Position numbers and translations under genes: made by a program. Under the pieces are notes generated by a model. That model had not been told where the DNA came from. It ran no database searches and was given only the letters and a program-made list of their open reading frames with translations. A DNA stretch of 64,000 bases from an uncultured virus (IMG/VR IMGVR_UViG_3300006737_000001). Taxonomy: Duplodnaviria; Heunggongvirae; Uroviricota; Caudoviricetes. The stretch lies in IMG/VR virus record IMGVR_UViG_3300006737_000001, positions 1-64,000 of that record; one strand, written 5' to 3'. Numbering within the stretch: position 1 is the first letter of the stretch; each line of letters begins with the position of its first letter. This document shows positions 2,029 through 32,249 of this stretch, in pieces.

Positions 2029-3285
2029 TTAATCACCTTTTAGATAGTAGTCTCTGTTCAATTTGATTTTTCCGTCAACTACTTTCATACCGAACTCTCT
2101 TTTGGTTTCTGGTACTTCACCTTCGTCAGATGATTTACCTTTTCCGAAAGAACGTTCGACGTCGTTGCTTGGCTCAGGCATTGCTGCTAGAGCGTCGCTA
2201 AATCCAGTCAATCTGGATTCATCCCAAGCGGAAAGTTCTTCGACACGAGCATCCTTTTTGTCTTCTTCGATTGAACCGAATAAGATTTCTTTGGATATAA
2301 TTGCTTCTACTGCTTCAACTTTTCTTGCTTCTGCTTCTTTGGTTAATCGGTCTTCTTCTGCTTTTTTGAAAGTTTCTAATTCTTTCATAGCTGCTTTGAA
2401 TTCAGATTCGATTTCCTTTTTAGATGCTTCCGCTTCTTCAAGTTGTGTGCGTAGAGAAGCGAACTCGCGTTCGACAATGCTTTCTGCGTCGGATTTTACA
2501 GTTGTTTCTTTTGTCTCTTCTGACATATTTACCTCTGTTTGTTCTGACTCGCATCCACAATTTCCTTCTTGGCCACCACAACCACAGTCGTGGTCGTCTT
2601 CAGGTTCTTGTGAATCACATTTCGTTTCTATAGTACATTCTTTACAGACTGGGTCCATCTTTTCATTGTCAATGAAACTTACCTCTGTAGGACGAATATT
2701 AGTGGCATAATTGTCACCCATAACGTCAATATCATTTGAAAACCAATCAATACTAACATGTGTCATGTCTCCTTCCTTAACTTTATTCATTACCTCTTGA
2801 CCGCGGCCATGTTTATTAGATACTGTTGCCAACATCTTGATTGCGGTCTTTCCATTGTCCATCTCGACCAACTCAGGTTTCGTTGCCATGCCGATTAGGT
2901 CCTCAGTTGTTCTCTGATGGTCTACATATATGGGGAGTTCTGAAAATTTAGTTAAACTATCTTTCAACATACCTCCTTCTATATAAACTTTATGTTCTTC
3001 TCCGTCAACCTCATATTCATGAGGTCCGGATGTAATAGCGATAACTGGGAATGATACAGAGTCGACTCCCTCATCGCTGGAAAATGTCATATCTTCACCG
3101 TCAGCCACTGCTAATGCGAATGACCTACGAACAGGTTCAGTGCTTTTGCCCTCTGCAAATTCCCGCTCTACGCCATTCTCATGAGCCCACATGCTACACA
3201 TGCCGGCTGCAATCTCTTCGGGGTTATCAAAACCCCTTTTCTTCAGGTTAGCTTTTGTGTCTAACATACATTTGTCGAATGTCAT
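2029..3285 (-). CDS. Prohead protease fused to coiled-coil scaffold
   Basis: PIYVDH, VSIDW, EVSF protease motifs; Cys-rich linker; acidic coiled-coil C-terminus; between portal and MCP. Confidence 0.75.
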   Translation of the reverse strand: MTFDKCMLDTKANLKKRGFDNPEEIAAGMCSMWAHENGVEREFAEGKSTEPVRRSFALAVADGEDMTFSSDEGVDSVSFPVIAITSGPHEYEVDGEEHKVYIEGGMLKDSLTKFSELPIYVDHQRTTEDLIGMATKPELVEMDNGKTAIKMLATVSNKHGRGQEVMNKVKEGDMTHVSIDWFSNDIDVMGDNYATNIRPTEVSFIDNEKMDPVCKECTIETKCDSQEPEDDHDCGCGGQEGNCGCESEQTEVNMSEETKETTVKSDAESIVEREFASLRTQLEEAEASKKEIESEFKAAMKELETFKKAEEDRLTKEAEARKVEAVEAIISKEILFGSIEEDKKDARVEELSAWDESRLTGFSDALAAMPEPSNDVERSFGKGKSSDEGEVPETKREFGMKVVDGKIKLNRDYYLKGD

Positions 3286-4589
3286 GCTCTATCTCCTGTT
3301 GCGTTTGCGGAGGGTTTATTTCCCCTATTTTGTGCTCTAGCGGATTCTTCTTTCTTATCTTCGTTTTTTCCGCCAGAAATATTAGCATTCTTATCACTTT
3401 GTTCTTGTTTGATTGGTGATGCCTTAATATCTTCAGAAGTTTCCATATCTAGTTCAGCTACTCCTTCAGGGTCAAGACCTCTTTCCTCTCTCACTTCACC
3501 GGGTGATAATACACCTTCTGACAAATAAATCATATCTGTCTTAGCTTTAGTGAATGCGTCATCTGTATTAATTTGCCTAAACTTAAATTTAGCATCGCCT
3601 GACTCTAATTGAGGCATCAGCTGGGAATTAAGTGCTCCCTCTATCATTGTTTGTAGGTATCTAACGTAAGGTTCGAATATTGGACGAGCCTTTTCAGGGT
3701 CTGTCCACATTGTTTTTGGTGTTTTTAATGCTAAATGAATTTTATCTAATATATCATCTGTATATTTACCATATTCAAAAGCACGTTGTGTACCTTGTAA
3801 CTCTTTGATAGTTATGTCGTTTCCATGGATTATATCTTCACCGGGCGCTAAAGTATTAAAAGCATCTACAATTTCATTAATTTTATCTGGACCATATGGC
3901 ATATCTGGTAAACCACATGATACATCAAATCGACTAGATGCATATTTATTAAGGGCTGCACCAATATCTCTTTCTGCATAATCTTTTAAATCCACTAAAT
4001 AGAGAATAGGATGTATATCTGATAAACCATAAGCAAAATCATCGAATTGATTATTTTTCAACTCTATAATCTCACTTTCTTCAAACCTAACGTTTTCTTC
4101 ATCATCACCTATTTTTTGATAATAATATTCTATTTGTCCGTGCTCATTCCTTTTAACAAACATATTTTGACTAGAACGTACAATTAAATTATCTCCTGTC
4201 CATTCTAAATACCCTGTACCAAAAATACGAGCATTTCTTATCCATCCATATAAAATATGTTCAATATTTATATCACGGAACATTTCTTCTAACTCTTCCC
4301 TTACATTGTCATCGGCTGTAACTATATCAAAATTATCTTTGACAGCATACAAGCAAGGTAAATCAATTAGACTTCTTACAATAGGGTCTGATAGGTAAAC
4401 ATTCATATAAGTTCTATTTTTACCAATGTGTGGCTCATAGTCCTTATTTTGTGCAAATCCACCGAATCCCTTATTTATTTTAAGTCTTTGAATTACTCCC
4501 GCACCGTAACTTCGTGGGTCGTCTTTTTTATACGCAGGATTGCCACCAACTCGGGCAAAAGTGCGTCTAACTCTATCTATAAACGACAT
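3282..4589 (-). CDS. Portal protein
   Basis: 435 aa after terminase; ARIFGTGY, YGLSDI, GVLSPGEVRE portal-like motifs. Confidence 0.85.
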   Translation of the reverse strand: MSFIDRVRRTFARVGGNPAYKKDDPRSYGAGVIQRLKINKGFGGFAQNKDYEPHIGKNRTYMNVYLSDPIVRSLIDLPCLYAVKDNFDIVTADDNVREELEEMFRDINIEHILYGWIRNARIFGTGYLEWTGDNLIVRSSQNMFVKRNEHGQIEYYYQKIGDDEENVRFEESEIIELKNNQFDDFAYGLSDIHPILYLVDLKDYAERDIGAALNKYASSRFDVSCGLPDMPYGPDKINEIVDAFNTLAPGEDIIHGNDITIKELQGTQRAFEYGKYTDDILDKIHLALKTPKTMWTDPEKARPIFEPYVRYLQTMIEGALNSQLMPQLESGDAKFKFRQINTDDAFTKAKTDMIYLSEGVLSPGEVREERGLDPEGVAELDMETSEDIKASPIKQEQSDKNANISGGKNEDKKEESARAQNRGNKPSANATGDRA

Positions 4590-16302: not shown

Positions 16303-16354
16303 TTTTCCACTCGTGTGAAAAAACCTTTATATAGGGTAGTGTTCTTGGTATATT
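16303..16354 (+). promoter_or_regulatory. Palindromic box + BRE/TATA cassette promoter 1
   Basis: TTTTCCACTCGTGTGAAAAAACCTTTATATAG...TTGGTA, then ATG. Confidence 0.8.
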
Positions 16355-16477
16355 ATGAGCAGAGGAGAACCATTTGGCAGTTGCGAGGACTGCGGGCTTG
16401 ATGAGGTCGAACTATTCGGCGGACTGTGTGAAGATTGTGAAACAGAAATGTTTGCGACTTTCTGGACAGGAGACTGA
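16355..16477 (+). CDS. 40-aa zinc-finger microprotein
   Basis: MSRGEPFGSCEDCGLDEVELFGGLCEDCETEMFATFWTGD; leaderless. Confidence 0.7.
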   Translation: MSRGEPFGSCEDCGLDEVELFGGLCEDCETEMFATFWTGD

Positions 16478-16513
16478 GAGAAACCTTTATATAGGGTGAC
16501 TCAATGGGATACT

Positions 16514-16597
16514 ATGAGAAAATTAAGCATACGAGAAATTAAACTTCAAACAATCGCATTAAGAAGAATACGCAAAGAAATGGAAAAGAATCTTTAG
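16514..16597 (+). CDS. 27-aa basic microprotein
   Basis: MRKLSIREIKLQTIALRRIRKEMEKNL, 28 nt after its own AAACCTTTATATAG. Confidence 0.6.
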   Translation: MRKLSIREIKLQTIALRRIRKEMEKNL

Positions 16598-16599
16598 AT

Positions 16600-16825
16600 T
16601 CCATGAGTCCCCAACACTGTAAGATGTGGCCGTAGGAGTAGGTGCACCTTTTGGAAGAGGCAAGTGTATGAGTAAGTTTAATAAACTTTCCAGCATGGGG
16701 ACAAGAGGAGACGCCTGACAAGTGATGGCGAAGGGCCAGTGGCATAAGTCCGCCCGAGCGTTAAACGTAGCGACGCATCTCCAGCCCAGTGAGCCGGCCT
16801 ACTACGGTGGGACAGCTGGGCGCCC
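16600..16825 (+). ncRNA. Candidate structured RNA with K-loop and pseudoknot
   Basis: GC-rich, no plausible sense ORF; GTCCCCA/TGGGGAC, GCCCAG/CTGGGC, cgc-CTGA-caa-GTGATG-gcg. Confidence 0.55.
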
Positions 16826-16876
16826 TTTTCCACTCATGTGAAAAAACCTTTATATAGACACACCCGTTGGTAATAT
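16826..16876 (+). promoter_or_regulatory. Palindromic box + BRE/TATA cassette promoter 2
   Basis: TTTTCCACTCATGTGAAAAAACCTTTATATAG...TTGGTA, then ATG. Confidence 0.8.
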
Positions 16877-17026
16877 ATGACTAGAAAACATTTTGTAGCA
16901 ATAGCTCAGTTATTAGCCAAGCATGACGCAGACCTTAATATGGTCCGAGACTTTGCCGGTATGTGTGCCGAACACAACCCACGCTTCGACAGAGAAACCT
17001 TTATAAAGGCCTGCTCAATGGAGTAA
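16877..17026 (+). CDS. 49-aa helical viral protein
   Basis: MTRKHFVAIAQLL...NPRFDRETFIKAC; leaderless. Confidence 0.7.
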   Translation: MTRKHFVAIAQLLAKHDADLNMVRDFAGMCAEHNPRFDRETFIKACSME

Positions 17027-17027
17027 T

Positions 17028-17171
17028 ATGAGTAAAATACAAGACATGAGAAACGCCCACCGTTTCCGCAGAGTAGCACGCAGAACCATAACCAAAAACA
17101 AGATTGACTTAGGAGTCCATGAGCAACTTATGGCTATCCGTTTGGGTCTTGCTGAGGATGTGAGAAATTGA
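17028..17171 (+). CDS. 47-aa basic protein
   Basis: MSKIQDMRNAHRFRRVARR...; promoter embedded in preceding ORF. Confidence 0.65.
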   Translation: MSKIQDMRNAHRFRRVARRTITKNKIDLGVHEQLMAIRLGLAEDVRN

Positions 17172-17284
17172 AAAGCATCTTAGATATTTTAGATGACATG
17201 GTCATCTCTGGCATAGATGAGGCAGGGGACTATATTGTCCTCTGCGGGTGTGAAGATGCACCTTGCTGTGGGTGCAACCTGTGA
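17168..17284 (+). CDS. 38-aa Cys-rich microprotein
   Basis: TTG start overlapping TGA; ends CGCEDAPCCGCNL. Confidence 0.55.
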   Translation: MKSILDILDDMVISGIDEAGDYIVLCGCEDAPCCGCNL

Positions 17285-17402
17285 GCTACGACAAACCACT
17301 CAAACGCAGTTGGAAGAAAGAAACAAATAAGATTATCAAAAAGGCCAGCCAATAGCTCGTTTGTTTTTCGGACACCTCCGGGGGGTAGGGCCTCCCCCCA
17401 CC

Positions 17403-17453
17403 TTTTCCACTTGCGTGAAAAAACCTTTATATAGACATACTCATTAGTATATT
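17403..17453 (+). promoter_or_regulatory. Palindromic box + BRE/TATA cassette promoter 3
   Basis: TTTTCCACTTGCGTGAAAAAACCTTTATATAG; preceded by G-run/C-run hairpin 17379-17399. Confidence 0.8.
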
Positions 17454-17690
17454 ATGAGCAAAAACTTATGTGGTAAGACACGCAAGACTGATGACCCTTA
17501 TGAGGTCTGGACTGGCCCACGTGGCTTTGAATGGAGAGTATTAAAAAAATACCAGAACGCTGAGAACGAAGCAAAGAATCCTCACGCCCGATGGTTCTGT
17601 GCTGTTAAGTCAGACTTTACCTATGGTTCTTTTGAACTTGGTGATGTGTATGTCAGTGAGATTAAGAGCATGGGGGAAAAGCTTATATAG
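17454..17690 (+). CDS. Hypothetical viral protein
   Basis: 78 aa, WRVLKKYQ...RWFCAVKS...ELGDVYVSEI; leaderless. Confidence 0.75.
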   Translation: MSKNLCGKTRKTDDPYEVWTGPRGFEWRVLKKYQNAENEAKNPHARWFCAVKSDFTYGSFELGDVYVSEIKSMGEKLI

Positions 17691-17709
17691 GGACACCCTA
17701 TTGGTTATT

Positions 17710-18125
17710 ATCGAGTGGGGAGCCCAAATTACCCCCACTCCTTACAGTTATCAGCTGTAACACCGTGACCTGAGAACTGAGACCAGAATAGACCATACGC
17801 AACAACGAGACACTAACATAACAAATACTAGCTGACAGTGCTGACCAATCCCTTTCCGGTCGATGCGCATCTAAGTTTTAGAACGACGTGTAGCTAACAT
17901 TTTGTATCACCTTTGAATCACTTTATCCCTGTTATAGAGTCAATCCGTTAAGCTATGATGTAATTCTCTGCATCTCTTTTCATCCATCTTTCGTGAAGGA
18001 TATCCTTTTGACTGATGGCAGGTCACACCTTGTGTGGCGCTACCTATGAAGATTGTCGCGCCCTCGGCAACCGCTCCCTAAGGTGTTTCTTAAATCAGGC
18101 CGAGCCTTAGGTGAAGTTGCATTTT
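17710..18125 (+). ncRNA. Candidate ~415-nt promoter-driven structured RNA
   Basis: Promoter AAAAGCTTATATAG...TTGGT with ATC (not ATG) at the start position; nested helices; ends in hairpin plus T-run. Confidence 0.65.
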
Positions 18126-18127
18126 AT

Positions 18128-18179
18128 TTTTCCACTTGTGTGAAAAAAGCTTTATATAGGGGTTCCCCCTTGGTAATAC
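18128..18179 (+). promoter_or_regulatory. Palindromic box + BRE/TATA cassette promoter 4
   Basis: TTTTCCACTTGTGTGAAAAAAGCTTTATATAG...TTGGTA, then ATG. Confidence 0.8.
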
Positions 18180-18416
18180 ATGAGCCAAGCAACTCAGACT
18201 AAGACCAATCTTCCTTGGAAGAATGGAAGCAAGGAGGTCGACTACTTCGTAGAAATCGGCACGACTCCGTATGGTAAATACGGTTTATACAAAGAAATGA
18301 TTCCTGTAGGAACAGGTAGCAGAGGAAGACACATGGAACTCGCTCGTGAGATTCGTCTGTCAAATCCAGAAGTCTTTGAGAACTTAGAACTAAGACAAAT
18401 AGTCAGCAGGGGTTAA
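18180..18416 (+). CDS. Hypothetical protein
   Basis: 78 aa, leaderless. Confidence 0.7.
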   Translation: MSQATQTKTNLPWKNGSKEVDYFVEIGTTPYGKYGLYKEMIPVGTGSRGRHMELAREIRLSNPEVFENLELRQIVSRG

Positions 18417-18445
18417 CCTTAAATAGGCACACTCATTGGTATAGT

Positions 18446-18778
18446 ATGACTAAAGCAAAGATGGATTACCTTTGGGCTCCAAAGGATGAAAGACTCGTGA
18501 GTTCTTTATTGGACTCGCTGGGATTTGCTCGTGTTGGTGTATCTCAACGATACCCAACCGGAGTAAAGTATGACTGCCTCGTAGCAATATGTGATGTCAT
18601 CGGTTCAAACGATAAGACAGCATCTATGGTTGCATCTCGCACTCATGAACTGCAATCCAAACGGAAAGCAACAGGTAAAGCACCATCGGTTGATTCAGTC
18701 GTTTCTGCTCTTGCATCTGGTAAGATGTCAGAAGCTGATTTGAAGAAAGCGATGAAGAAAGCAGGACTATTGAAATAG
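18446..18778 (+). CDS. Hypothetical protein
   Basis: 110 aa, leaderless from AACCTTAAATAG...TTGGTA. Confidence 0.7.
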   Translation: MTKAKMDYLWAPKDERLVSSLLDSLGFARVGVSQRYPTGVKYDCLVAICDVIGSNDKTASMVASRTHELQSKRKATGKAPSVDSVVSALASGKMSEADLKKAMKKAGLLK

Positions 18779-18789
18779 ATAGATAATAA

Positions 18790-19010
18790 GCACCTGAGCA
18801 AGTCAGAAAACTGCTCACCTTATATTTATGGAAGTAGCTCTTCCGTAATCGGGTATGGCCGAACAAGTCCGCCACGGACTAAGGCACAGGACTGCGCAAA
18901 CCGAGAAGCGACTGCTGGAGGGATGCAAAACTGGTATGGGTTCTACTATGTAGTGGCATAAACCCATTGGAGGTATACATTAAATCCTCCTACCCATCCT
19001 TATTTTTTTT
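18790..19010 (+). ncRNA. Candidate multibranch structured RNA
   Basis: TGAGCA/TGCTCA, TTATGGAAG/CTTCCGTAA, AGTCC/GGACT, ATGGGTT/AACCCAT, GGAGG/CCTCC, GGGTA/TACCC; ends in T8. Confidence 0.5.
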
Positions 19011-19021
19011 ATAATTTTTAT

Positions 19022-19039
19022 TTTTCCACTCGAGTGAAA
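19022..19039. promoter_or_regulatory. Fifth palindromic box without downstream TATA
   Basis: TTTTCCACTCGAGTGAAA. Confidence 0.6.
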
Positions 19040-19485
19040 CTTTTTCAAGATGCCTCAGCTCAACAAACCCCTCCTCCTCAGTTCGCTTTACAGAGCTCGT
19101 GAGAAACCGTTATCGGGCAGTGAGAAACTGCGCTCTCAGTTCAGGTTCAAACCAGAACCAGAGGTCAGTAGGGCCAGATGAGAAAATAGTCTCAGTTGAG
19201 CACAAGCTCTACTAAGATTTTCGGTAGGCTACAATGAGAAAATGCTTAATGGAGCTTAGTTCGACACGTAATGTGTTCGTGCTCGAACTGTAGTAGTAAT
19301 AGTTATCAGCCTATATTATCTCAGTTAAGCTTTATTATAATGCTCTATTACGCAAAGCTCTACTGAGTAATTAAGCTTTACTTAGTTAAGCTTTACTAAG
19401 CTCTTTACTTACAGCAATAATTAGCATAACTAAGCTATATCTTAATATAGTTAATATAGGGAACACGAACTATATAAAGTTTTGC
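19040..19485. repeat. Non-coding short-repeat region (candidate origin or terminal-repeat boundary)
   Basis: TGAGAAA x4, TTAAGCTTTA x3, AAGCTCTACT x2, AT-rich; leftward TATA at 19470-19483. Confidence 0.55.
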
Positions 19486-19586
19486 ACGAAAAAGCACCCC
19501 GTTTTTTATACTCAGTTTATTTTTTGTGCTGGGTTCTCAGTCCACAAGGGGAAACGCTTATATAGGGGTATATTGATGTAGATACG

Positions 19587-26447: not shown

Positions 26448-27053
26448 ATGAAAGAGATAATGGAAGAATATAGCACCACGTTCTTTGAATGTATGAGTGC
26501 GTGGCCAGATGATATCAAAGAAGATATATACAAACTATACGCATACCTCAGGGTATGTGATGAGATGGTTGAAGGTGAGAAGACTTTACATGACTTCAAA
26601 CATTGGAGGGAAGTCATAGAACAATTCTACGAAGTGAGTGATAAGTATCAGTTCGAAGGCGAGTGGCTCTCAGACTTTCACATAAGTATGTATCAAGACA
26701 TGGTGAAGAAAGAACATACTATAGTGTCTATGTTAGAATACTGTAAGGGTTCAGCTGAATCAGTTGGTATGATGATGTCAAAGATATTAGGATGTCACCC
26801 ACGCTGTGAGATACACGCCAGAGCATTAGGTAGAGCATTTCAAGTTATTAACTTCATACGAGATTATGATGAAGATGTAGATAATGGTTATCATTACATC
26901 ACAGATAACTTTAGTGCATATTTAGAAATATTTTATCAGGATTTAGATAACGGCATGGATGGAATAGATTATATACCTAAAGAGCTACAACCACCCATTC
27001 TTATGGCTGTAGAAAAATACATGGCTGTAGCTAAGAAAGTAAGTGAAGCCTAA
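26448..27053 (+). CDS. Squalene/phytoene synthase family protein
   Basis: LYAYLRVCDEMVE, YCKGSAESVG, ALGRAFQVINFIRDYDED. Confidence 0.82.
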   Translation: MKEIMEEYSTTFFECMSAWPDDIKEDIYKLYAYLRVCDEMVEGEKTLHDFKHWREVIEQFYEVSDKYQFEGEWLSDFHISMYQDMVKKEHTIVSMLEYCKGSAESVGMMMSKILGCHPRCEIHARALGRAFQVINFIRDYDEDVDNGYHYITDNFSAYLEIFYQDLDNGMDGIDYIPKELQPPILMAVEKYMAVAKKVSEA

Positions 27054-29181: not shown

Positions 29182-29388
29182 ATGGCAGAAAAAAATAGCT
29201 TAGAACTAACAGCCGGATTGTTCCGGAACACTGATAAGAACGGAAACATCTACTACTCAGGTAAGTCCGAAGGTGGAGATGAATATGTTATGTTCAGGAA
29301 TACCTATTGGAAAGAAGGAAGTAACAAACCATACTTCAGACTAATGAAAAGAACTGATGGAGCATCTACTCCAACAGTGGAGGACTAA
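29182..29388 (+). CDS. Small beta-rich protein (possible ssDNA-binding)
   Basis: GLFRNTDKNGNIYYSG...KPYFRL; strong SD. Confidence 0.55.
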   Translation: MAEKNSLELTAGLFRNTDKNGNIYYSGKSEGGDEYVMFRNTYWKEGSNKPYFRLMKRTDGASTPTVED

Positions 29389-29389
29389 A

Positions 29390-29761
29390 ATGTATGGAAG
29401 AGATGCAGACCGTATGATGGATATGTGGTTGGACTTACTATCACAGATAGAACAAGTTCCCTCAGGCCGTCATGCCCTATCTACACTAAGTAGAAAGGAT
29501 GTCTCAGTAAATGTAGAGAATGGCACCATAACAATCACAGCTGAATTAGCTGGTTTGGATAAAGAACAGGTTGATGTGGAAGTCAGTAGTAGAACAGTCA
29601 CTATCGTAGCCAACTCAGAGAGAAAGAACTTCAAATGGGAAGAGACTTTTCTATTTGAGTTAGACCCAGAGTCTACAAAAGCTACTATGGTGAATGGTAT
29701 ACTAGACTTAGTCATAGAAAAGAAAGTGAAGACATCAGCTAAGAAAGTAGAGATAGAATGA
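29390..29761 (+). CDS. Small heat-shock protein (Hsp20)
   Basis: AELAGLDKEQVDV...ATMVNGILDLVIEK alpha-crystallin motifs. Confidence 0.85.
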   Translation: MYGRDADRMMDMWLDLLSQIEQVPSGRHALSTLSRKDVSVNVENGTITITAELAGLDKEQVDVEVSSRTVTIVANSERKNFKWEETFLFELDPESTKATMVNGILDLVIEKKVKTSAKKVEIE

Positions 29762-30508: not shown

Positions 30509-31981
30509 ATGAAAAAATATGAAATATACGATTTGCTAAGATATTTTCACAATGCAAAGAAAAAAGACGGAACACTTTTCCCTATACTAGGAGAGGATTC
30601 GTTAGCTCTAACTACAAGTCTATCTTACTTGTTAGAAGATACTAACTTCTGTATCAAAGCATACAGTGGAACAGGTAAGACTGTATTGATGGAAGCTGTG
30701 GCAAACCTACTTCCAGAGGAGTATGTCTACTCAGTAGAACATATGTCAGAGACAGCAATATGGTATGACGAGGATAAAATCAACAAAGCTAGATTTGTTT
30801 TTATTCCAGAAGCACAAAAGATACCAGAGGGTGTCATGGAAATCATTAAAACATGGGCAGACGGGCGAACAGCCCAACGTAAAAAGACAGATGTTACTAT
30901 CAAGATGGCAGTAACACAGTGGTTAAAACCTAAATATGTTTTAATGGCAGTAGCAGTAGAGAATGATAAAGGTTCAGCTATGTTTGATGCTGAGTTAGAA
31001 CGTAGATGTATGATTATGCATACAAACCCTACAGTCAAACAGACAGAAAGAGTTATCAAACATAAACTTTTACATTCAGCTTCACCAAAAGCCTCTATGT
31101 CTTCAATGTCAGATAAAGAAATAAAAGATTTAAAGAAACACATACTAACTACATTGAGAGAAAGAGACGAAGATGATGCGACTGTATTAAAGAATCCATG
31201 CGCCCCATTTCTATTTGACGCAATACCATCAGCATTCCCTGTATCACGGTCGAAGGTTCAGTATCTATTGAAGTTGATTAATGCTATAGCAAGGTTTTAT
31301 CCAGATGAGATAGTTAAAGTCAAACAAGATGGTATACAATATGGACTAGTATCACCTAAACATAACTGGCTCGGACTGAGAATATATCTTAACTCATTTG
31401 TAGAAGAATGCTTACACATGCCAAGTCATGGAACAGACATACTTAAACTATTTCCCGAAACTAGATTAGATAGGTTTGGTTTTGCAGATAGTGAGACAGT
31501 TAAGATGTCAGAGAATGAATTGAAAAAGGCTGCTAAATCAGCTGGTCTACCATTTACCAAATTAAGACCAGTTATAGCAGGTTTAATGATGACAGGGTTC
31601 TTAGAGTGTGATGAAGAAGGAAGTAAAAAACTTTACTATAAGAGCCCACTCATTACAGAACCAGTATCAAAAATAAATTGGAGTGATTTAATTGAAGAAA
31701 CGAAAGAGTTTATACGAAAAGAGTGGCCTAAAGTATCTGATGAATACATTGGGCGCAGTTGTAGCAGTATCAGGATTGTTGACCCGTTTAGTGGGGACAA
31801 CATTGAACTGGGTGCGAGAGCAGAGACAGCGGTAGAAGTTGACACTGGTGATTATCCGTCAGTGTTCAAGTCTTCTAGTGACGCTAAGATTAAAGACTAC
31901 GAGTCTTTTCTACTAAATGCAGAGGGAGATTACAATGACGAAGAAGACAAAGCAGTCAGAGAATACTTTCAGAAGAAGTAG
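30509..31981 (+). CDS. AAA+ ATPase, putative replicative helicase
   Basis: Walker A AYSGTGKT, degenerate Walker B FIPE, ELERR arginine finger, C-terminal winged-helix-like region. Confidence 0.6.
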   Translation: MKKYEIYDLLRYFHNAKKKDGTLFPILGEDSLALTTSLSYLLEDTNFCIKAYSGTGKTVLMEAVANLLPEEYVYSVEHMSETAIWYDEDKINKARFVFIPEAQKIPEGVMEIIKTWADGRTAQRKKTDVTIKMAVTQWLKPKYVLMAVAVENDKGSAMFDAELERRCMIMHTNPTVKQTERVIKHKLLHSASPKASMSSMSDKEIKDLKKHILTTLRERDEDDATVLKNPCAPFLFDAIPSAFPVSRSKVQYLLKLINAIARFYPDEIVKVKQDGIQYGLVSPKHNWLGLRIYLNSFVEECLHMPSHGTDILKLFPETRLDRFGFADSETVKMSENELKKAAKSAGLPFTKLRPVIAGLMMTGFLECDEEGSKKLYYKSPLITEPVSKINWSDLIEETKEFIRKEWPKVSDEYIGRSCSSIRIVDPFSGDNIELGARAETAVEVDTGDYPSVFKSSSDAKIKDYESFLLNAEGDYNDEEDKAVREYFQKK

Positions 31982-32249
31982 ACTTCCTAAGCGAGATGAG
32001 ATGTTTGCAGTAGTCATAGAGATGTCAGGGGGTTCTAGAATGAGAGCCCTCTGTGCAGACAGTAAAACCCGCATGATTAGAATCGGTGGTAAACTGAAGA
32101 AAAGAATGTGGTGTAGAGAGAATGATTTAATTATAGTTAAGCCTTGGGTTATACAGAGTGACCAAAAGGCAGACTTAGTTTATAGGTATCTCCCTACTGA
32201 GAGAAAGAATATAAGTAAAAAAATACCAGAGGAGTTAAACATATGGTGA
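31935..32249 (+). CDS. eif1a: Translation initiation factor aIF-1A
   Basis: RLP...EMFAVV.EMSGGSR...IRIGGKLKKRMW.RENDLIIVKPW..Q..KADLVYRY. Confidence 0.9.
   Translation: MTKKTKQSENTFRRSRLPKRDEMFAVVIEMSGGSRMRALCADSKTRMIRIGGKLKKRMWCRENDLIIVKPWVIQSDQKADLVYRYLPTERKNISKKIPEELNIW

Follow-up and report, generated by a model that had tools for sequence, protein, structure and literature searches.

The early region of a tailed virus, probably one of archaea, carries a structured RNA, here termed the rod RNA, with a conserved core whose helices are kept among its homologues through compensatory change. Its best explanation, to which we assign a probability of about 0.5 from sequence and modelled folds, would be that the virus encodes a non-coding RNA whose action is in trans and falls early in infection. 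On the best reading, this RNA would be a self-associating viral scaffold or protein decoy that behaves like manA, OLE and GOLLD yet is a member of none of these families. An earlier note on this DNA had claimed that a cassette promoter here drives a non-coding RNA, and had named unconserved helices as the outcome that would speak against it; the compensatory changes and the lack of a shared ORF among homologues support that claim.

The window, which is the whole stretch of DNA that was analysed, covers 64,000 nt of a virus record that totals 67,299 nt, bears terminal repeats and is complete. It codes for a major head protein, terminase, portal, primase, PolB, ribonucleotide reductase (RNR) and an AAA_5/VWA pair, as well as an Hsp20-like protein and an aIF-1A of archaeal type. 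In the early region, small cassettes follow one another; their promoters are of the BRE/TATA kind and their genes are leaderless. The gene content (aIF-1A, Hsp20, TATA promoters, PolB, RNR, primase and head genes) fits the group B magroviruses of Marine Group II (MGII) archaea as described in the accessible part of PMC5434244. The virus is thus probably a magrovirus, with the host assignment resting on gene content, and no named magrovirus record appears among the matches listed. A 16S search in one archaeal genome gave no match. Elsewhere in the window, a non-coding stretch at 19050-19480, in which GTGAGAAA repeats are followed by an AT-rich repeat tract, is a candidate replication origin; similar stretches occur in loci L107, L117, L193 and L098.

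The promoter pattern of the early cassettes has 13 matches in the window versus 0.76 expected. At eight neighbouring cassette promoters (16328-19559) an ATG lies 19-21 nt past ATAG; after the promoter of the rod RNA, which overlaps the stop codon of an upstream 78-aa ORF, position 17710 reads ATC, which bears out the earlier observation of a neighbour-like promoter without an ATG. Inverted repeats with a variable 4-nt centre precede cassette promoters at 16303, 16826, 17403, 18128 and 19016, and their centres take 22 spellings across 62 copies. The promoter type, being that of protein-coding cassettes, might suggest that a protein gene has decayed here and left its promoter in place. This explanation is already refuted: homologues with an ATG and an intact ORF, which the earlier note had named as its hallmark, are absent, as 19 homologous records (17 distinct) have neither an ATG at the start position nor a shared ORF, and the region shows indels of any length together with covariation. 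One oligo-dT marine RNA run contained 7% of the words; its 15 placed contigs had a mean depth of <3 per bin and a longest record of 10.7 kb and covered genes and spacers alike, so that DNA carry-over is possible in that run. The features of the locus are collected in Table 1.

Table 1. Features of the rod RNA locus and the nearby manA RNA, in window positions
Feature	Position	Strand	Remark
BRE/TATA promoter, early-cassette type	17677-17690	+	Matching promoter ≤130 nt away in 19/29 homologues
Predicted non-coding primary transcript	17710-18124	+	Start set from leaderless neighbours
Optional 5' GC-rich hairpin	17713-17740	+	Some close copies show compensatory changes; absent from 8/17
Leader: UUAYNNUU(A/C) motif and hairpin	17742-17761	+	Loop self-complementary in most homologues
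Conserved core (262 nt) with closing helix P1 (17765-17772 with 18019-18026)	17765-18026	+	
Long irregular rod, 5' strand (the "A/C-rich stretch")	17774-17823	+	
UCCCU motif at rod tip, site II	17849-17853	+	
Inner helix GUCG/CGAC around palindrome 17863-17870	17859-17887	+	3/4 pairs change on both sides
UCACU (17918-17922) and UCCCU site III (17926-17930)	17918-17930	+	
Rod, 3' strand	17930-17982	+	
Hairpin adjoining P1: 5-bp stem, C-S-UGA/UUUG internal motif (near-invariant), 4-bp apical stem	17984-18018	+	
Tail ACCUU	18027-18031	+	A(n)CC after P1 in 24/29 copies; manA copies end alike
Optional 3' hairpin, invariant internal loop	18067-18120	+	7/15 pairs change on both sides (16 copies)
U-tract and repeated inverted repeat before next promoter; probable 3' limit	18122-18146	+	
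manA RNA (RF01745)	18826-19000	+	62.8 bits, above gathering score; same leader and tail

Homologues were sought through neighbouring proteins and sequence patterns, which yielded 30 distinct full-length cores of 235-296 nt, 17 of them close and 13 distant. Identity to the window core, scored for 28 cores, spans 51-84% overall (58-84% for close and 51-57% for distant copies). Loose pattern scans produced many false matches (18/34, 7/10 and 36/44); the largest false set was a topoisomerase-like ORF from another virus group, a label given by reading the translation. BLAST against 50,697 phage records returned only 6 chance matches of ≤33 nt.

Comparison of these copies shows that the core, of ~265 nt, has a predicted P1-closed three-way junction from which a long rod and, next to the 3' strand of P1, a hairpin of fixed length emerge. 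The minimum free energy (MFE) fold of the region was better than those of shuffled sequences (z = -2.55, 0/100 as good; z = -2.63, 1/100 as good), while the core alone folds less strikingly (z = -1.78, 10/200 shuffles as good). Several helices that the earlier note had read by eye are present in the MFE fold: the 5' GC hairpin (17713-17740), a TTACAG/CTGTAA hairpin (17742-17760), the closing helix P1 and an ATAACA/TGTTAT helix (17818-17823 with 17930-17935). The terminal hairpin (18067-18120) is in the MFE fold too, but it is optional, being missing in 2/17 close cores. Other elements fell away. The proposed AGTCAA/TTGACT helix has a pair probability of 0.0 versus 0.98-1.0 for a competing CCATC/GATGG helix, and AGTCAA is present in only 2/29 cores. 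A kink-turn formed by CTGA and TGATG is contradicted by the finding that TGATG occurs in 2/29 cores and lies within a covarying Watson-Crick helix; the conserved CUGA and UGAUG-type strand pairing that marks k-turn and box C/D RNAs is absent from the rod RNA. The A/C-rich stretch described as unpaired (17790-17828) is 59% paired in the MFE fold and 53% in the ensemble, and corresponds to the 5' strand of the rod.

P1 is found in 14 distinct 6-bp spellings, all of them self-complementary, and cross pairings between spellings succeed in 4/182 cases. Because the first core detector selected for a complementary P1, recovery of distant copies by a covariance model provides an independent check. The model, built from 11 close copies, gave 29 matches in 475,607 nt from 55 sources, all at this RNA element, and recovered the 12 distant copies supplied to it (one only partly), with ends that agree to 2 nt or better; E-values ranged from 1e-10 to 0.16, with the weakest distant matches at 0.06-0.16. 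In a plain MAFFT alignment of the 11 copies, 93.4% of cells pair and 20/52 pairs change on both sides, compared with an average of 8.0 in shuffles (0/500 reach 20) and 2-7 in slid controls, a count for which the structure was derived from the same alignment and which relatedness inflates. In a model-fitted alignment of 29 copies, which leans towards the model, 92% of cells pair and 44/52 pairs change on both sides; fitted alignments that include the distant group exceed 400 columns. RNAalifold applied to the distant group alone recovered only the 3' hairpin, because MAFFT misaligns P1 in that group. For the inner domain of ~100 nt the fold is established in part: the close copies covary at GUCG/CGAC, and the distant-group fold was read by eye.

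The fitted alignment contains 36 G-U pairs versus 31 C-A mismatches, and this lack of a G-U excess counts against a strand-specific reading. Together with the many near-palindromes and a GC skew that switches sign near 14 kb of the window, it is what a DNA-level element or a replication-primer RNA, acting through cruciforms or an origin R-loop, might produce. We regard such an element as very improbable, however, given that irregular long-range helices show compensatory change and that the RNA inverts along with the adjacent 110-aa gene and not with the AT-rich candidate origin. Moreover, the apical loop of the P1-adjoining hairpin (GAAA in 9, AUAU in 8 and UUCG in 7 of 30 cores) exchanges GAAA and UUCG, as expected for RNA on the + strand.

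The gene context of the copies bears on whether the RNA acts on its own transcript. The description of a "stand-alone" RNA stands for the 19/29 copies that have a dedicated promoter; the other 10 have none within 130 nt and sit behind a protein gene or a manA RNA. Ten distant copies lack a promoter and follow the 110-aa gene, and three of them lie behind manA. The product of the 110-aa gene could be placed in neither Pfam nor PHROG nor any named Atlas family. This placement of 10/29 copies in the 3' region of a gene is consistent with a cis-acting RNA element that protects or terminates its own transcript or controls read-through into the next cassette, as is the first description of manA itself as a probable cis element (accessible part of PMC2864571). 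Nonetheless, a cis element appears unlikely, since the unit formed by each of the 19 dedicated promoters contains no ORF, the next gene has its own promoter, and core size and motifs are kept through changes in gene order and strand. Among 27 loci reached via the AAA gene, 21 records contain the core and one stops within the 3' hairpin; another three are truncated ahead of the region, and two partial records (L111 and L117) have a dn110-MoxR region in which the RNA was not found. Given its absence from these two related partial records, the RNA may be dispensable. G004 and G006 also lack the RNA but are cut in the region and were not counted as absences.

tmRNA and tRNA-like RNAs combine a terminal helix and an adjoining stem with a long irregular helix that leaves the junction. 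The rod RNA shares elements of this layout: P1 (6-9 bp) has G as its first base and is directly next to another stem, the apical stem always lies 17-19 nt from the core end (30/30 cores), and an A follows P1 in most copies. With the virus also encoding aIF-1A, one could envisage a ribosome-directed RNA in which P1 and the adjoining stem mimic the acceptor and T arms while the rod spans the ribosome. We judge this improbable. ARAGORN finds nothing, and the rod RNA has no T-loop, D-loop, CCA in a fixed register, G3-U70 or other constant identity pair in P1. Nor is there a conserved tag frame; the internal ATG of close copies opens frames that, by eye, vary widely in length. In 11/12 comparisons with E. 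coli rRNA, the longest shared words are no longer than chance predicts; the remaining hit, one 12-mer over a GAAA hairpin, reached 1/60 shuffles and was not counted after 12 tests. A likeness to the 16S decoding site, examined in the same E. coli comparisons, was rejected, the decoding-site register costing 12.6 kcal/mol.

Two loops of the rod RNA bear on self-association. In every close core (17/17), the loop inside GUCG/CGAC contains a palindrome of 6-10 nt, which takes six spellings centred on GCGC, GGCC or AGCU; the 12 distant cores examined lack this variable inner palindrome and have a near-invariant UUAA instead. By hand count, the leader loop is palindromic in 10/11 clear spellings drawn from both groups, often as one base plus a 6-nt palindrome (three ambiguous spellings, including that of the window, were set aside; scored as misses, they give 10/14). 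Palindromes are found in 279/1600 nearby hairpins and in 3/22 centre spellings of the neighbouring DNA inverted repeat, and these low rates indicate that a general drift towards palindromes does not explain those of the leader loop. The window leader hairpin has two alternative folds, with either a loop AUC or a U plus CAGCUG, and in the window's subgroup the palindrome is hidden by a more stable leader fold with compensatory changes of its own. For OLE and GOLLD, symmetric kissing loops that switch between palindromes (GGCC, GAUC and AGCU in OLE) are taken as evidence of cross-chain pairing in the accessible part of 10.1101/2024.12.08.627333; the rod RNA shares this switch between palindromes in its close cores, and not in the inner loop of the distant ones. 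By analogy, two loops that vary in spelling yet stay palindromic would represent a signature of intermolecular kissing loops.

The leader and tail are shared with manA. The UUAYNNUU(A/C) motif, which was defined on these very sequences, is located 20-35 nt ahead of P1 in 29/29 rod RNAs and ahead of 17/25 manA copies, compared with 2.9% of random 50-mers. Leader hairpin and tail recur in the manA copies, where the loop is mostly U-AGCU. There are 25 distinct manA copies in related loci, and in L104, L105 and L113 manA is directly upstream of the rod RNA; the window manA sits behind a gene and has no gene directly downstream. Beyond the leader and the ACC(UU) tail, both RNAs have a G-started closing helix with an adjoining short stem. 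They differ in that the rod RNA has a core of 235-296 nt with a long rod whereas manA has a multi-hairpin core of ~175-190 nt, and neither is detected by the model of the other (no manA score on the rod RNA; no match of rod RNA model R1 to manA). Papers describe manA from cyanophages, Photobacterium and marine metagenomes, and according to the accessible part of 10.64898/2026.07.01.735769 it forms 8-, 10- and 60-mers. With a common leader and ACC tail, the rod RNA and manA look like modules of processed RNA arrays. This shared frame would argue that manA exists in these viruses as a free RNA and does not serve as a regulator within a 5'-UTR.

Other units near these RNAs vary. Most distant copies carry a different conserved 3' module, a GGAGGG/CCCUCC stem and two hairpins, in place of the window's 3' hairpin; it lies just 3' of the core in L104, L105, L107, L109, L110, L112, L114, L116, L142 and L193. 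Additional ATG-less promoter cassettes that run into G/C-closed stems occur in L083 (~3370-3620 and ~3890-4010) and L084 (~3230-3450). These have no Rfam match and are probably other RNA modules.

In the rod tip, of ~100 nt, the UC(A/C)CU motif occurs two or three times with constant spacing, site III being located 99-104 nt from the core 3' end in 20/30 cores. No 5-mer other than UCCCU was common to the 29 cores of a first count, and in the full set UCCCU occurs in 30/30. The UC(A/C)CU motif, likewise defined on the sequences in which it is counted, averages 3.07 per core versus 0.65 in shuffles, and its sites are predicted to be mostly open (0.62 unpaired versus 0.41 for the core). Open pyrimidine motifs could act as antisense RNA, pairing with ribosome-binding sites so that leadered mRNAs are silenced and the early viral mRNAs, being leaderless, are spared, and indeed the early genes are leaderless and other genes use AGGAG-type sites. 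The complement of UCCCU, however, differs from the AGGAG/GGAGG word of this genome, and a 5-nt seed whose central base alternates between A and C does not suit one fixed partner, which makes the antisense alternative highly unlikely. An A/C exchange within a short open motif fits a protein pocket better than base pairing, and KH domains may accept A or C at this position.

How an RNA acting in trans might work can be sketched in steps of unequal strength. There is about an even chance that the RNA is made from its own early promoter or within a longer transcript, the shared leader and tail marking the points at which modules would be trimmed. It is marginally favoured that copies would then pair via their self-complementary loops, as in OLE and GOLLD, to give dimers or closed oligomers. 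Far more tentatively, such an oligomer could serve as a scaffold or decoy by displaying its UC(A/C)CU motifs to a host protein that binds single-stranded RNA; among KH-domain proteins, archaeal NusA or aCPSF1 would be a first guess. The KH domains of Nova and PCBP favour C (accessible part of PMC2532734), and archaeal NusA and aCPSF1 bind RNA through KH domains (accessible parts of PMC8116511 and PMC12127562). Our literature search found no report that joins archaeal NusA with CU-rich RNA. In a broader and doubtful version, these viruses would carry arrays in which a single recurring linker connects RNA modules (the rod RNA, manA and smaller hairpin units) that a host nuclease then separates, with the rod RNA oligomerising into a multivalent decoy of a host KH-domain factor for transcription termination or translation. 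If true, this would be an archaeal viral takeover mechanism made of RNA alone.

We asked how the rod RNA relates to known RNA families. It has no entry in Rfam 15: scans with the gathering score as cut-off, or with E as high as 10, gave no match over 17710-18124, while manA, 700 nt away, was detected, and scans of four homologues at E up to 5 gave nothing. Archaeal SRP RNA is of comparable length and is a rod linking two functional ends. The rod RNA differs from it in having no Rfam match, a pyrimidine-rich tip and no GNRA helix 8. Rfam models for SRP RNA, RNase P RNA and 5S rRNA gave no match, and a 5S rRNA word test gave no membership. GOLLD, ROOL and OLE are likewise structured RNAs, of which GOLLD and ROOL are phage-encoded, but they are bacterial and larger (659 nt for a ROOL example and >800 nt for many GOLLD RNAs, per the accessible part of 10.1101/2024.12.08.627333), and their Rfam models do not match the rod RNA. 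We rate the rod RNA as one that would work like the ornate viral RNAs and shares the frame of manA, yet fails membership of each family. A literature search brought up no description of any large structured non-coding RNA from a virus that infects Marine Group II archaea, and the term "non-coding" is absent from the accessible parts of the magrovirus papers PMC11706807, PMC5434244 and PMC10160649. Fremin et al. 2023 report viral RNA candidates of ≤151 nt (accessible part of PMC10690425); motif terms are absent from the searched supplements of that paper, and its further files may list fragments of the RNA. The rod RNA is small enough for transcription and cryo-EM, with 30 natural variants available for swap experiments, and lies near manA; the leader and tail that the two share offer a testable handle on the maturation of such viral RNAs.

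Some observations concern other genes of the window. Two ORFs, a squalene/phytoene-synthase-like ORF and a small heat-shock protein (26448-27053 and 29357-29761, respectively), both score under curated cut-offs. The aIF-1A gene (31917-32249) has at least 289 relatives among the matches listed, and the term "initiation factor" did not occur in two magrovirus papers covered by a term look-up. A scan of genome contigs with aIF-1A gave three loci, with no named MGII genome among them. One contig in a bacterial MAG (L143) codes for a protein 82% identical to the viral aIF-1A and is probably a misbinned viral contig.
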